A stretch of DNA of 64,000 nucleotides from Candidatus Moraniibacteriota bacterium (lineage in GTDB: Bacteria > Patescibacteriota > Minisyncoccia > Moranbacterales > UBA1568). This document shows positions 30,821-56,157 of this stretch, one piece after another. The stretch spans positions 890,617 through 954,616 of the forward strand of contig CP064974.1 of the NCBI GenBank assembly GCA_016699385.1. Reading direction: 5' to 3'. The translations under genes and the position numbers were made by a program. Position 1 is the first letter of the stretch; every line of letters begins with the position of its first letter. The notes beneath the pieces were generated by a model. It saw only the letters and a list, made by a program, of their open reading frames with translations. It had not been told where the DNA came from and ran no database searches.

Positions 30821-31285
30821 ATGGATCAGAAACTCATTGCATTCAATCTCTCCCAGCGTCGCACCGACCTCCCTCCAGTCCGGACCGGCGATGTCGTCCG
30901 CGTCACCCGCAAGATCAAAGAAGGCGCCAAAGAACGCCTCCAGGTCTTCGAAGGCATGATTATAGCCAAAAAAGGCGGTCAGAGTGCTTCACAGACCATC
31001 ACTGTTCGCAAAGTCTCTTTCGGTATCGGAGTGGAAATCATTTTCCCGCTCAATTCCCAGCAAGTAGAGAAAATCGACTTCGTAAAGCGCACCAAAGCCG
31101 GTCGTTCAAAGATTTACTATGTCCGCCACAAGTCTGCCAAGGTATTGAGTCGCAAACTCAAAGAAATCCCCGCCAAAGACATTATCATCGAGAAGCCTGT
31201 CAAGAAAGTCGCCAACAAAGCAAAGAAGACCGCTCCCAAAACAGCAGAAACCGCAGCAGAAGAAAAGATTTCAGCCAAAGAGTAG
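30821..31285 (+). CDS. rplS: Ribosomal protein L19 with Lys-rich C-terminal extension
   Basis: Start MDQKLIAF. Core DLPPVRTGDVVRVTRKIKEG...RLQVFEGMIIAKKG. C-terminal KKVANKAKKTAPKTAETAAEEK tail. Confidence 0.85.
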   Translation: MDQKLIAFNLSQRRTDLPPVRTGDVVRVTRKIKEGAKERLQVFEGMIIAKKGGQSASQTITVRKVSFGIGVEIIFPLNSQQVEKIDFVKRTKAGRSKIYYVRHKSAKVLSRKLKEIPAKDIIIEKPVKKVANKAKKTAPKTAETAAEEKISAKE

Positions 31286-31351: not shown

Positions 31352-31436
31352 GGGGATATGGTGGAATTGGTATACACACACGTTTGAGGGGCGTGGCCCT
31401 TGTGGCATGAGGGTTCGAGTCCCTCTATCCCCACCA
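31352..31436 (+). tRNA. tRNA-Leu (anticodon GAG), CCA encoded
   Basis: GGGGATA acceptor, anticodon loop TTGAGGG, long variable arm CCCTTGTGGCATG, T-arm AGGGTTCGAGTCCCT, 3' CACCA. Confidence 0.8.
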
Positions 31437-31440
31437 ATCA

Positions 31441-31476
31441 GAAAAGCCGAGGGATTTCCCCTTGGCTTTTTCTTTA
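31441..31476 (+). terminator. Putative terminator after tRNA-Leu(GAG)
   Basis: AAAAGCCGAGGGATTTCCCCTTGGCTTTTTCTTTATTT. Confidence 0.5.
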
Positions 31477-31503
31477 TTTCTGCTATTCTTCTACCCAGAA
31501 AGC

Positions 31504-31580
31504 GGACGATTAGCTCAGTTGGTTAGAGCGCCTCGTTTACACCGAGGAGGCCGCTGGTTCGAGTCCAGCATCGTCCACCA
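31504..31580 (+). tRNA. tRNA-Val (anticodon TAC), CCA encoded
   Basis: GGACGAT/ATCGTCC acceptor, D-arm AGCTCAGTTGGTTAGAGC, anticodon loop TTTACAC, T-arm GCTGGTTCGAGTCCAGC. Confidence 0.85.
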
Positions 31581-31656
31581 CATTTGATTGGTGATAATTT
31601 CTCTGCTACAGTGTGGAAGTCAGGGAGAGTATTCCCTGTTTTCCGTTGTTCCTTTT

Positions 31657-31728
31657 GCCGAGGTAGCTCAGTGGTAGAGCAGAAGACTGAAAATCTTCGT
31701 GTCGGGAGTTCGATTCTCCCCCTCGGCA
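31657..31728 (+). tRNA. tRNA-Phe (anticodon GAA)
   Basis: GCCGAGG/CCTCGGC acceptor, anticodon loop CTGAAAA, T-arm GGGAGTTCGATTCTCCC. Confidence 0.85.
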
Positions 31729-31752
31729 CAGTAGAAGTTTGAGGTATCAAAA

Positions 31753-31824
31753 CAGAAGAATGAAAATCTTCGTGTTGGGAGTTCCCCGCCTACCGGCAGG
31801 CAGGGATTCTCCCTCTCGGCACCA
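31753..31824 (+). pseudogene. 3'-partial duplicate of tRNA-Phe (anticodon arm to CCA) with a ~20-nt insertion in the T-arm
   Basis: CAGAAGAATGAAAATCTTCGTGTTGGGAGTTC[CCCGCCTACCGGCAGGCAGGG]ATTCTCCCTCTCGGCACCA aligns to the 3' two-thirds of tRNA-Phe. No 5' acceptor or D-arm is present. Confidence 0.6.
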
Positions 31825-31837
31825 TTCACTTCATCCA

Positions 31838-31909
31838 GGGACCGTAGCTCAGCGGTAGAGCAGGGGACTCATAATCTCTTGGTCGCTGGTTCGAATCCAG
31901 CCGGTCCCA
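31838..31909 (+). tRNA. tRNA-Met (anticodon CAT)
   Basis: GGGACCG/CGGTCCC acceptor, anticodon loop CTCATAA, T-arm GCTGGTTCGAATCCAGC. Confidence 0.8.
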
Positions 31910-32063
31910 CGTTAGTATCCTATCTCGAAAGCTTTACTCAACAGAGAATTGATTTTCACCCCTCTAGCCCTCGAAGGAATTGCAAAAAACTGATATTTCC
32001 GATAAGATAAGGGCGATTTGAACAATTCAAAGAATTCCAGTCTCTCAGAAGAGTTCACAACAC

Positions 32064-32135
32064 GCGGGTATCGTATAGCGGCTATTATGTAACCTTGCCA
32101 AGGTTAAGATACGGGTTCGACTCCCGTTACCCGCT
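32064..32135 (+). tRNA. tRNA-Gly (anticodon GCC)
   Basis: GCGGGTA/TACCCGC acceptor, anticodon loop TTGCCAA, T-arm ACGGGTTCGACTCCCGT. Confidence 0.85.
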
Positions 32136-32295
32136 CACAAGAAGTAACGCCGTCCCATTTGGGGCGGTTTTGCTTTTTCGCGGTAAAGAGGAGTCGAACT
32201 GGAAAGGGGTCGGGGAAACATTTGTTTTCCAGTCTGGAATAACAGAGTCTTCGAGGATTAGAGGGCGGAACGGAACCGCCAATTGGCGGTGAGCA

Positions 32296-32321
32296 GTTCG
32301 ATCTTCCCCTTACCCGCTCAC
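32296..32321 (+). repeat. Direct repeat of the tRNA-Gly T-arm/3' end (att-like scar) closing a ~180-nt structured spacer
   Basis: GCAGTTCGATCTTCCCCTTACCCGCTCAC compared with the tRNA-Gly end GGGTTCGACTCCCGTTACCCGCTCAC. 12/12 identity over TTACCCGCTCAC (32127-32138 versus 32310-32321). Confidence 0.6.
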
Positions 32322-32354
32322 TAAACAAAAAATCACTCCGGCTGGAGTAATTTT

Positions 32355-32783
32355 TTAGCTGGAAAGATTTTGATTAATGCAATATTTTCTTAAAATTTCA
32401 TATATAGCTCCCAATACTTGTTCTCTAACGGCGGGGTCGCTTGCTGCTATCCATTTAGCAAAATTATAAAGTTGCTGGTTATCAATCTTTAACCACTTCC
32501 CATTTTTATGAAGAAAATACAATAACGCCATGATGGCTATACGTTTGTTTCCATTTTGGAAGGGGTGGTCTTTGATTATAAGATAAAACAAAATCGATCC
32601 TTTTCTATAAACTCTTGGATAGAGTTGCTTTTTATCAAAAGTTTGTCTAGGAGCGGCCAAACAAGCCTCGAGCTTATTTGGATATCTGCTTTGAAAATCA
32701 GGGATAGGCTCGTTCCAAGACATTAACTCTTTGGCAAGTGTATGGGCTACATATTCGATTTCAGAAACTGAGAGGTACTTCAT
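32355..32783 (-). CDS. Doc/Fic-family toxin (death-on-curing type)
   Basis: HPFQNGNKR matches the Doc motif HxFx(D/N)GNKR. 142 aa, immediately downstream of a small HTH gene with a 2-nt gap. Confidence 0.8.
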   Translation of the reverse strand: MKYLSVSEIEYVAHTLAKELMSWNEPIPDFQSRYPNKLEACLAAPRQTFDKKQLYPRVYRKGSILFYLIIKDHPFQNGNKRIAIMALLYFLHKNGKWLKIDNQQLYNFAKWIAASDPAVREQVLGAIYEILRKYCINQNLSS

Positions 32784-32785
32784 AG

Positions 32786-33046
32786 TTATTCCTTACCAAG
32801 CAACTTGAATGTTTCACCGTATTCTTCAATAGCTTGCTTGACGGCTTGTTCGATTGTTCGTTTATCTTTTTCGTTGAGGTTTCCTATTAAATCACCATAA
32901 CGGATAAGGTAATTTCTACCAATTTTTCTAGCAAGAATAGTCCCCCTCTTAATTCTTTGAAACACAGCAAAACGGCTGATAGCGAGAATTTCAGCTACCT
33001 GTGTCGTCGAGAGGAGGTCGTCATGTTGATAGTTTTTCATACTCAT
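32786..33046 (-). CDS. HTH DNA-binding antitoxin-like protein (excisionase/MerR-type HTH) paired with Doc
   Basis: LSTTQVAEILAISRFAVFQRIKRGTILARKIG helix-turn-helix. Start taken at MSMKNY (alternatives 33040 or 33082). Confidence 0.65.
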   Translation of the reverse strand: MSMKNYQHDDLLSTTQVAEILAISRFAVFQRIKRGTILARKIGRNYLIRYGDLIGNLNEKDKRTIEQAVKQAIEEYGETFKLLGKE

Positions 33047-33174
33047 GTATATGATGTTAACATATGTGTATATATAAGTCAATATGTCACATATGTTATA
33101 TGTACTATAAATTATGTTACATGTAAATTTTTCCGTTTAGATTCAGTTCTTACCGTAGCCACTACCCAGCTCCA

Positions 33175-33213
33175 AAATAAAACAAGCGTCCAATCAGGCG
33201 CTTGTTTTATTTC
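33175..33213. terminator. Bidirectional hairpin terminator-like element
   Basis: AAAACAAGCGTCCAATCAGGCGCTTGTTTTATTT, flanked by A-run and T-run. Confidence 0.45.
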
Positions 33214-33568
33214 TTGGGTTGGCAGTGAGACAAAGACTCCCATTTGCTCGTCCAAAGCGTAAGCGAAGGATGGTTGCCCGCTCCCGAAAAACCAGACTTA
33301 CTAAAGCCTCTTTTATAATATCCAGGAATTTAGTTGGAACTGAAAGACCCCTAAGGAACAAAGCCTCTATTTACAAATCCAGCCTTAACCGCACATACAG
33401 CTCCCGCTCAGCTAAAAACAAGATTCCTCCCTCAATTCTATTCAGAGTCGCACAGTCGAGTCAATTGACGAGATATTTTCTGAGAATTTCATATGGGGAG
33501 ATATTTTTCCCACAAAAAAGCTGTGGTACAATAAAGGCATACAATAGCAATACTTTATAAATATTCCT

Positions 33569-55407: not shown

Positions 55408-56157
55408 GTCAAAAAGATTCTCTGAGAGATTTTGGCTCAAGTGAAAGATAAAAAAAGAATTTCTTTTCTTTTCCAACGAATATTTTTCGAAAATACCTCA
55501 AAAAAAATGCTGATGGGATTAATCGAAGAATGCTTTTGTAGAGACATTCTCCAAAAAAACTTCTCCCGCGTTGACCCAGCACTTTTTTTCTGTTATACTG
55601 AGATTGTTATCAAGTGAAAGAGCAGTTCATTAAAAAACAAAAGTACTCACTAGTTGACCCGTCCGGCGAAGTCCTCTCTTCATCGAACGGTAGCGGGGTT
55701 CCAATCGCAATTTCCCCCTATTTGCGATTGGACTCCCCCTACTGTTCCTCCTCGAAAAATTTCGAGGCTCTCCTTCATCCGACAAGGAGAAACCAAAAAA
55801 CAAAAACAAATTTTCCTGTCGAACAAAAATAAAGACAGAAAAATAAAAAGAAAAAACAAAAAAACAGTTCTTTCAAAAAGGAATCAAAAAAAGGATTCCA
55901 AAAAACCAGGCTAAATGCCAAGGACACGGTACGGGCGATACTCAATCGGAAGAGTGTTACAACTTACATGCGATCATATCACGCGAAGTTCTTAATGGAT
56001 TACTGATGCTCCTCACCCGTGCTAGGTAACCGGAACACGCGTTGGCGCATGGCCGGGGGCTACCCACCAACTTATTCATATTTGGGTGCGCGTAGCACCC
56101 GGCAACCAACTCTTTTATACTTTTCACTCACAACTTCTCATTCTCGAAAGTCCCGAA

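Follow-up and report, generated by a model that had tools for sequence, protein, structure and literature searches.

The T-loop and the anticodon stem are the classical crossover sublocations of the attachment (att) sites located in tRNA genes. In TnpB omega-RNAs and in the homing CRISPR RNA of type V-K CRISPR transposons, which targets tRNA genes, the guide equals the flanking target, whereas mascRNA and the tRNA-like structures at viral 3' ends are tRNA-like processing handles. Partial tRNA genes commonly arise from integration (PMC9897764), and hepatitis delta virus (HDV)-like theta ribozymes and hammerheads are reported to adjoin tRNAs in phages (PMC10879173). The sequence analyzed here (hereafter, the window) is a 64 kb stretch of a Candidatus Moranbacteria genome (Patescibacteria, or candidate phyla radiation (CPR)), in which partial copies of tRNA-Phe and tRNA-Gly lie behind the intact genes and next to a Doc/helix-turn-helix (HTH) gene pair; the original prediction, made from this sequence, took them for traces of a decayed integrative element or a recombination hot spot. 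Here we show that the tRNA-Gly repeat and the spacer it encloses are one copy of a widespread small element of CPR bacteria, not an integration scar. Our preferred reading, to which we assign a probability of roughly 0.55, is that 32180-32321 is a somewhat degenerate copy of the A2 subtype of a family of structured elements associated with the tails of tRNA and transfer-messenger RNA (tmRNA) genes, and that this family is a harmless, retargetable and self-propagating passenger, a selfish element resembling an intron and probably acting at the RNA level.

The tRNA-Gly repeat consists of CCCGTTACCCGCTCAC at 32123-32138, which comes back as CCCCTTACCCGCTCAC at 32306-32321 after an interval of 171 bp that contains no open reading frame (ORF). 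The predicted duplication of the last 12 nt of the tRNA together with a T-loop-like GTTCGA was thus confirmed, with GTTCGAT located ahead of the second copy at 32296-32302. With up to three mismatches allowed, the repeat has two matches in the whole window and no third copy in the 64 kb (shuffled sequences gave 0.22 matches on average, and two or more in 3 of 100). A covariance model built from nine A2-type elements, with the window excluded (R1), matches 32182-32321 over its full length at 46.6 bits (E = 4e-11), its sole significant match in the 64 kb, and a model built from 54 A1 cores of other loci (R2) matches 32194-32268 at 42.6 bits (E = 4e-10). The window copy belongs to the A2 subtype, which is marked by the common GAGGAYTAGAGGGCGGAAGCCCTAT. 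A weak match to the A2 model on the minus strand at 55625-55744 (8.8 bits, E = 0.67), with GGGGGAGTCCAAT followed by a hairpin and no tRNA close by, is probably due to chance.

The interval 32137-32360 has a minimum free energy (MFE) of -88.5 kcal/mol (z = -5.1) that none of 200 shuffles equaled, with a terminator at either end and a closed multi-hairpin domain in between, so that the spacer is as strongly structured as had been proposed. The 5' arm of the element begins 44 nt past tRNA-Gly on the same strand, its first 10 nt (GTTCGACTCC) are an exact reverse-complement match to tRNA-Gly nt 53-62, and its mirror axis differs from the axis of the terminator hairpin by 1.5 nt. Folding of the entire sequence from tRNA-Gly through the downstream copy (MFE -112.3 kcal/mol, z = -6.1) yields a swapped fold, in which the 5' strand of the acceptor stem is predicted to engage the distal copy, leaving the tRNA's own tail to pair with the 5' arm in a long hairpin that runs through the terminator. 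A read-through transcript is predicted to swap folds in this manner because the 5' arm complements the tRNA's own tail better than it does the downstream copy.

Each copy in the family consists of a 5' reverse-complement arm, a conserved core, a T-loop-like heptamer and a direct copy of the tRNA tail, usually followed by a second terminator. The core, GGAAAGGGGUC, is about 75-110 nt long and contains two covarying hairpins, H1 and H2, along with purine-rich junctions. Across 54 cores, 92.9% of the cells are paired, and compensatory double changes occur in 72 cells compared to 15.9 +/- 5.1 in shuffles (0 of 500 as high); slid controls fall far below the real pairing. H2 is represented by 35 distinct complementary stems, with pair 60-78 being AU in 22 cases, GC in 20 and CG in 10, and its outer pairs freely interchange AU, GC, CG and UA; in H1 (CGGGGAAAC/GUUUUCC(A)G, 32211-32232 in the window), the lengths of the A-run and the U-run change in step. 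Of the two hairpins originally proposed for the spacer, GGCGG/CCGCC (32264-32280) is retained, and ACTGGAAA/TTTTCCAGT, a pairing of junction J1 with the 3' strand of H1, turns out to be a mere alternative to the conserved H1: it is compatible in 85% of the cells but without covariation, whereas H1 is paired in 98%. In the junction GGNGG, the central N (alignment column 50) covaries with the last nucleotide of the H2 tetraloop (column 72; CG 29, AU 3, UA 3, other 19), which suggests a tertiary pair or a pseudoknot. Analysis of full-length elements with MAFFT and RNAalifold was uninformative, the middle portion being variable.

The anatomy of the arms was measured on 69 loci. The 3' arm is a direct copy of tRNA nt 60-73 with 97-100% identity, reproducing nt 61-72 at 94-100% per position, followed by CCA or trailer when genomic, and the T-loop part of this copy is replaced by a GUGAGAU-like or GUUCGAU-like heptamer, sometimes with a GCGAAGC mini-hairpin after it. 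The reverse complement of the 5' arm agrees with tRNA nt 53-62 at 87-100%, with the tRNA-specific nt 59 and 60 among the positions matched, and drops to background by nt 69; complementarity spans the T-loop and the 3' strand of the T-stem, from nt 53 to about nt 65, and the arm was originally longer. Arms vary from copy to copy, each matching its local tRNA, and only TCGAAC and GU(U/G)(C/A)GA are shared. Where the tRNA and the downstream copy differ, the 5' arm follows the tRNA in 14 cases and the copy in 4, so that compensatory co-evolution of the arm with the downstream copy is not seen. Where the T-stem contains G.U pairs or mismatches, the arm complements the 3' strand, likewise by 14 to 4, which rules out derivation of the arm from the native 5' strand of the T-stem. 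The arm mirror axis coincides with the terminator hairpin axis to within 3.5 nt in about 27 of the 30 loci whose stems reach 12 bp or more, and the duplication extends to the trailer and terminator in 11 of 56 loci. The downstream copy contains CCA where the tRNA gene encodes CCA and lacks it otherwise. Because CCA tracks the gene and the trailer is sometimes copied (20% of the loci), the tail copy, including that of tRNA-Gly, comes from the gene or its primary transcript and is not a retro-copy of mature tRNA.

In the 559 kb of rplS-anchored genome loci, R2 detected 13 strong copies, all of them on the tRNA strand and just behind a tRNA, save the one in L019 (L-numbers denote contigs or loci of relatives compared with the window), where the locus begins at a contig edge and only the 3' end of the tRNA is visible. 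Behind tRNA-Gly, the same layout is found in the distant relatives L004, L013, L015 and L025 and, with other cores, in L016 and L021: a terminator is followed by a segment with (G)GAATCGAAC at its end, a core starting with GGAAAGGGGTCGG-GAAAAC, and a copy of the relative's own tRNA-Gly tail. Under the original prediction, neither the tRNA fragments nor the toxin-antitoxin pair was expected to be syntenic across distant relatives; the tRNA-Gly fragment is, in the first four of these loci, and the pair is not. A search of every tRNA in the relatives' loci revealed tail duplications downstream of Leu, Ala, Phe, Met, His, Val and Ile genes, at distances of 50-280 nt.

Scanning metagenomes for a pattern derived from the 5' half of the core yielded at least 120 loci. 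Among the matches listed, a co-oriented tRNA lies 5-130 nt ahead of the element on nearly every contig that extends upstream, the host tRNAs represent at least 34 anticodon types and about 20 amino-acid types, and in at least 60 loci, a second copy of the tRNA's final 14 nt, differing at no more than one position, follows after about 100-160 nt. The tmRNA genes serve as hosts, too (L194, L211). The same pattern gave 32 matches on viral contigs, all by chance and without the features of the family, which speaks against a phage origin. Clustering of the 456 ORFs located within 3 kb of 120 elements revealed no recurrent family, so that no linked reverse transcriptase, integrase, TnpB or IS110 was identified; among the matches listed, the largest cluster of neighboring proteins covers 8 of 120 loci and is made up of housekeeping or membrane proteins. 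No family in Rfam 15 matches the spacer, the window copy or the best canonical copy (for 32137-32360, the best score was 17.4 bits, E 2.3-8.5), and neither Rfam nor ARAGORN supports assignment to tmRNA, signal recognition particle RNA, RNase P RNA, 6S RNA, YrlA, T-box or small ribozymes. In the published literature, no description of a tRNA-tail family or architecture was found, although one could exist outside the literature searched; judging from these negative Rfam 15 and literature searches, the family apparently has not been described before. At least two further types of core, B and C, show the same logic of inverted and direct copies of the tRNA tail. Type B (L006:6688-6810, L016:7742-7870, L021:4350-4505) has a core of the form GAAGGGnn..nnCCCAGGCCCGnAGGG, and type C (L033:8628-8800, L037:619-780), found on contigs labeled as Saccharibacteria, contains the hairpin UCCUGUAAGGA.

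How similar two cores are does not depend on the host tRNA: the median identity is 63% whether the two tRNAs are of the same type or of different types, and the closest pairs often involve different tRNAs, such as Arg(TCT) and Ile(TAT) at 90%. The alignment with related genomes, proposed earlier as a search for an empty site, did find such sites: the orthologous tRNA-Gly site lacks the element in L014 and in L001, the closest relative (GyrA 96.6% identical to that of the window at the protein level), and is occupied by an A2, A1 or type B core in other lineages. Tandem copies are present in L128 (three) and L168 (two), and shortened copies in L096 and L167. Taken together, the host-independent similarity of the cores, the empty and filled sites, and the tandem, shortened and decaying copies indicate that the element probably is, or formerly was, mobile and has been repeatedly retargeted and turned over. 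The three units in L128 (407-1300) follow tRNA-Pro with a 292-nt period, each ending with a tRNA tail and trailer and with the middle expanded by a repetitive insert. Other inserts also separate a tRNA from a copy of its 3' part, namely, a GIY-YIG-like ORF behind tRNA-Ile at L016:7040-7340, where the repeat starts from the anticodon loop, and a peptidase-E-like ORF behind tRNA-Gly at L020:6351-7090.

Under the preferred reading, the RNA would be made by read-through from the tRNA operon, and the 5' arm would act as an internal guide that pairs with either the tRNA's own 3' part or the downstream copy, as P1 and P10 do in group I introns. The read-through transcript would resemble a pre-tRNA with a large insertion in the T-loop, with the upstream gene still giving normal tRNA. 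Transcripts that end at terminator 1 would yield normal tRNA as well, and the element would be harmless for that reason. The mirror symmetry, the common TCGAAC boundary and the palindromic TTCGAA suggest that the arms could be copied from each new target by fold-back priming from the terminator hairpin, followed by a template switch at the TTCGAA microhomology in the T-loop. A more ambitious version, which we put forward tentatively, holds that these are a new class of RNA-guided, protein-less (or host-enzyme-dependent) mobile elements. A small ribozyme-like core would use two target-derived arms, the first antisense to T-loop and T-stem sequence and the second a sense version of the acceptor tail, to insert after any tRNA or tmRNA, or reversibly within its T-loop, while leaving it active. 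If this is true, the element would amount to a small 'intron that need not be spliced' that could be redirected to every tRNA via the universal TTCGAA motif.

Several observations weigh against the passenger reading, in whole or in part. The window copy retains J1 and H1, the latter with one G.A mismatch, but the A2 junction has changed from GGGGUGACC to GGAAUAACA, the A2 module departs from the subtype consensus (GGGGTGACC to GGAATAACA), the hairpin with the GGAA loop is remodeled and the closing helix is bulged; with J2 diverged, H1 mismatched and the closing helix bulged, this somewhat degenerate copy may be inactive. A good terminator lies ahead of the element, and no promoter was predicted in the stretch separating it from tRNA-Gly, so its transcription depends on read-through. 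Searches of Rfam 15 recognized no known ribozyme core in the element, and the arms could result from DNA repair, through fold-back priming at the terminator, rather than from an RNA mechanism. Near-identical copies were not seen, the best pairs reaching 90-94%, so that there is no sign of recent activity. An arm-less type A core (L015:1958-2041) fits exactly between two tRNA genes, after the 3' end of tRNA-Val and before the 5' end of tRNA-Phe, with a visibly decaying ortholog at L017:4720-4802 (42 versus 76 bits); the arms are therefore not indispensable, which fits a processed small RNA. Finally, because the pattern used to scan metagenomes came from the element itself, divergent members are under-sampled.

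The alternative that survives best, although we consider it unlikely, is indeed a host-beneficial small RNA carried in tRNA transcription units, with the tRNA-derived arms serving as processing or stability handles. Such an RNA would act in trans, for example, in tRNA quality control, and its closing helix and tRNA-like 3' end would be matured by RNase P, RNase Z, RNase III or the CCA-adding enzyme. The strong conservation and covariation of the core, the strict co-orientation with tRNAs, the retention of the downstream tail copy far beyond that of the trailers, and the position of the L015 core directly between two real tRNAs, without arms, all argue for a function of this kind. A beneficial RNA, however, sits poorly with the occurrence of several diverged copies per 12 kb in genomes of about 1 Mb (L010, L013, L015, L017), with decayed or shortened copies (L017, L096, L167 and, in part, the window) and tandem arrays, and with patchy presence at orthologous sites, including absence from the closest relative, L001. 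Furthermore, the part of the closing helix that resembles an acceptor stem is often unpaired, making many copies poor minihelix mimics.

It is improbable that the elements are neutral DNA by-products that form during break repair by fold-back priming at terminators and template switching at TTCGAA, the core being passively copied and functionless. In this case, one would not expect junction nucleotides to stay invariant or two hairpins to acquire compensatory changes in hosts that are very divergent, nor the downstream copy to remain 97-100% identical as the trailers drift apart, even though the mirror symmetry centered on the terminator, the duplication of the trailer in 20% of the loci and the decay of the outer part of the inverted arm toward AT are all consistent with such an origin, as are the duplicated tRNA tails that accompany unrelated insertions (the GIY-YIG-like ORF of L016 and the insert of L020).

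The Doc-family gene and its HTH partner are located just beyond the tRNA-Gly repeat, as predicted, with the partner scoring slightly under the HTH_17 cut-off (Table 1). The Doc motif fits HxFx(D/N)(A/G)NKR, and the partner matches HTH_17, not Phd of the Phd/YefM type; the hairpin expected past the pair is visible at 33173-33210. In L001, synteny is perfect on both sides, but the 1.2-1.4 kb from tRNA-Gly to the response-regulator gene are wholly different and contain another gene, and in L014, nothing lies between the two. The element together with the Doc/HTH block has been recently exchanged between diverged strains because 32108-33343 is 100% identical to L058 while the adjoining L058 flank is 90.6% identical. 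Past this block, the window has 155 bp (33344-33497), compared to 1.9 kb with an MFS transporter gene and a 92-aa ORF in L058; the breakpoint is in non-coding DNA, where no repeat or hairpin was seen. The Doc/HTH pair is the putative cargo of a variable island that starts just past the element and is independent of the tRNA-Gly element. The notion of a recombination hot spot is thereby borne out for the region from tRNA-Gly to the response regulator, whereas that of an integrase footprint, and of a decayed integrative element flanked by the repeats, is not: the 171 bp between the repeats enclose no cargo, the pair lies outside them, and the proposed search for integrase remnants found no tyrosine or serine recombinase gene, or remnant of one, among the window ORFs, with Pfam searches on the ORFs of 32957-33557 and the extra L058 genes giving MFS_1 only. 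That both partial tRNA copies are attL/attR-type footprints and Doc/HTH the surviving cargo is therefore highly improbable, despite the start of the repeats in the T-loop (Gly, about nt 57-60) and the anticodon stem (Phe) and the presence of an excisionase-type HTH_17 protein in an island, given also that the inverted arm and mirror symmetry are not att features, and that the same architecture and core occur behind about 20 tRNA types and tmRNA, so that no single integrase specificity explains the family, whose sequences refute this reading on the tRNA-Gly side.

The tRNA-Phe copy with its insertion is present, too, but it is not the pure 3' fragment originally described. Faint remnants of the 5' half (GAGGTA..TCA, 31741-31749) survive, which is why we regard it as a decayed duplicate of the whole gene. 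The copy begins at the anticodon stem and ends with CCA, a triplet that is absent from the functional tRNA-Phe gene and from most of its counterparts in relatives. With the copy of L001 it shares 93.5% identity, including the insert (CCCCGCCTACCGGCAGGCAGGG, 22 nt, 31784-31805) inside the T-loop. Neither ARAGORN nor RF00005 calls it as a tRNA, the 5' strand of the acceptor stem and the D-arm being lost and the T-loop interrupted. We read the tRNA-Phe copy as an old pseudogene that is independent of the tRNA-Gly element, compatible with either a tandem duplicate or an att-type duplicate from the anticodon loop. The insert belongs to a family of 20-nt perfect palindromes, CCTGCCTGCCGGCAGGCAGG, that are inserted in the loops of structured RNAs at many CPR loci (four copies in L101, two in L184, L144:989, L175:956, L027, L196). 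The insertion sites include the D-loop/anticodon-loop region of tRNA genes, the T-loop of the tRNA-Phe pseudogene and the H1 region of two tRNA-tail elements. This family resembles Rickettsia palindromic elements or mitochondrial GC clusters.

The predicted tRNA cluster, including tRNA-Phe and tRNA-Gly, is intact, with all five genes called by both ARAGORN and Rfam. Relatives of the product of rplS (30821-31285), located just 5' of the array, are almost all from Candidatus Moranbacteria or other Patescibacteria metagenome-assembled genomes, and the arrangement rplS-Leu(GAG)-Val-Phe-Met-Gly is kept in about 25 Moranbacteria loci. The encoded ribosomal protein L19 has a Lys/Ala-rich C-terminal extension of ~35 residues (window 31200-31285), and many of the matched relatives lack it beyond residue ~115. 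Group I introns (RF00028, 79-87 bits) are present at L013:7365-7559 and L025:1749-1974, where the tRNA-Met of the conserved array is 'missing', and large gaps in place of tRNA-Phe or tRNA-Met are found also in L002, L008, L009, L014 and L018-L020. Given these introns and the similar gaps in other loci, intron-interrupted tRNA genes seem to be common in Moranbacteria.

Table 1. Features of the locus between the tRNA array and the variable island, in window coordinates
Feature	Position	Strand	Comment
tRNA array	31352..32136	+	Leu(GAG)-Val(TAC)-Phe(GAA)-Met(CAT)-Gly(GCC), downstream of rplS; ARAGORN and Rfam
tRNA genes	Leu 31352-31436; Val 31504-31580; Phe 31657-31729; Met 31838-31910; Gly 32064-32136		
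tRNA-Phe pseudogene	31753..31824	+	anticodon stem to GGCACCA; traces of the 5' half at 31741-31749
Palindromic mini-insertion, 20 nt	31785..31804	.	consensus CCTGCCTGCCGGCAGGCAGG; in the T-loop of the tRNA-Phe pseudogene
Block identical to L058	32108..33343	.	100% identical to L058; adjoining L058 flank 90.6% identical
Long fold-back palindrome	32115..32199	+	tRNA-Gly nt 53-73 with trailer, terminator 1, mirror-image 5' arm
Terminator 1	stem 32149-32168, loop 32157-32160	+	center of the palindrome 32115-32199
Element, whole	32180-32321	+	~140 nt, A2 subtype; arms, core and T-loop-like heptamer
5' arm, GCGGTAAAGAGGAGTCGAAC	32180..32199	+	imperfect reverse complement of tRNA-Gly nt 53-72
Junction J1 (TGGAAAGGGGT) and hairpin H1	32200..32232	+	H1 = CGGGGAAAC / loop ATTT / GTTTTCCAG; one G.A mismatch
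A2-subtype module	32233..32295	+	contains GAGGATTAGAGGGCGGAA and hairpin GGCGG/CCGCC (32264-32280)
T-loop-like GTTCGAT and 3' arm	32296..32321	+	direct copy of the tRNA-Gly tail; last 12 nt, TTACCCGCTCAC, exact
Terminator 2 (ACTCCGGCTGGAGT and T run)	32335..32356	.	common to the 3' end of the convergent Doc gene
Doc/Fic-family toxin gene	32355..32783	-	Pfam Fic/DOC PF02661, 44.9 bits (cut-off 24), E = 2e-11; HPFQNGNKR
HTH_17 (excisionase-type) partner	32786..33046	-	2 nt upstream of Doc; 25.4 bits (curated cut-off 27), E = 1.7e-5

If confirmed, the family would add a new class of conserved structured RNA to the CPR/Patescibacteria, a huge and poorly understood share of bacterial diversity. It would also represent a new way of exploiting tRNA genes, with the invariant T-loop serving as a universal landmark and the tail of the target copied in both orientations. 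The questions raised by such elements concern the factors that process or mobilize them in minimal genomes, catalysis by the core, and a common mechanism for the T-loop insertions of CPR bacteria. For genome annotation, the practical consequence is that partial tRNA copies behind CPR tRNA genes are not automatically scars of prophages or islands.

Among the known systems, the tRNA and tmRNA att sites of tyrosine integrases share with the element the duplication of the 3' part of the tRNA from the T-loop or anticodon loop, the preservation of an intact gene, the targeting of tmRNA and the proximity of an island. The element differs in having no integrase and no cargo in its 171 bp, in adding an inverted copy mirrored across the terminator, and in placing one non-coding core behind all tRNA types. 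A different parallel is offered by the group I introns of bacterial tRNA genes: a single 5' segment of the element could pair with both sides of the tRNA junction in a P1/P10-like manner, the element is silent for the tRNA, and true introns reside in the same arrays of the relatives L013 and L025. When examined for such a pairing, the 5' arm proved able to complement two stretches, tRNA nt 53-65 and the beginning of the downstream copy, but the -1 U/omega-G pattern was not established. Unlike these introns, the element has a core of only about 75-110 nt, located after a complete tRNA and terminator rather than in the anticodon loop; its splicing would not be required; and RF00028, the model for the catalytic core P3-P9, has no match in the window or the elements at E values up to 10 in the same search that found the L013 and L025 introns.

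Like the ribozymes reported next to phage tRNAs, the element is a small structured RNA directly downstream of a tRNA and putatively co-transcribed with it. It is distinct in having no Rfam ribozyme match, a trailer or terminator in between, tRNA-derived arms, and a location on CPR chromosomes, not on the viral contigs scanned. With repetitive extragenic palindromes (REP) and their REPIN doublets, miniature inverted-repeat transposable elements (MITEs) and Rickettsia palindromic elements, it has in common a length of about 100-150 nt, the absence of coding capacity, a long closing helix, multiple copies in intergenic regions, often by terminators, and decayed copies. The terminal repeats of MITEs and REPINs, however, are their own inverted repeats, identical between copies and accompanied by a short target-site duplication, whereas those of the element are copied from the local tRNA, and the element combines a strict class of targets (tRNA and tmRNA tails) with a fixed orientation and RNA-like internal covariation.

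By analogy with the guide RNAs of TnpB and type V-K systems, the element can be viewed as a scaffold that leads into about 14-17 nt of sequence identical to the tRNA gene, and this 3' segment directly follows the universal T-loop motif, which could act as a protospacer- or transposon-adjacent motif; yet no TnpB, Cas12k or transposase is found nearby or recurs among the matches listed, and the antisense arm would occlude the guide. Finally, in comparison with mascRNA and viral tRNA-like structures, the acceptor-like helix of the element is often incomplete, although its 3' end mimics an acceptor end, including CCA when genomic, and could by analogy recruit tRNA-processing enzymes. In contrast to those handles, the mimic is always that of the neighboring tRNA.

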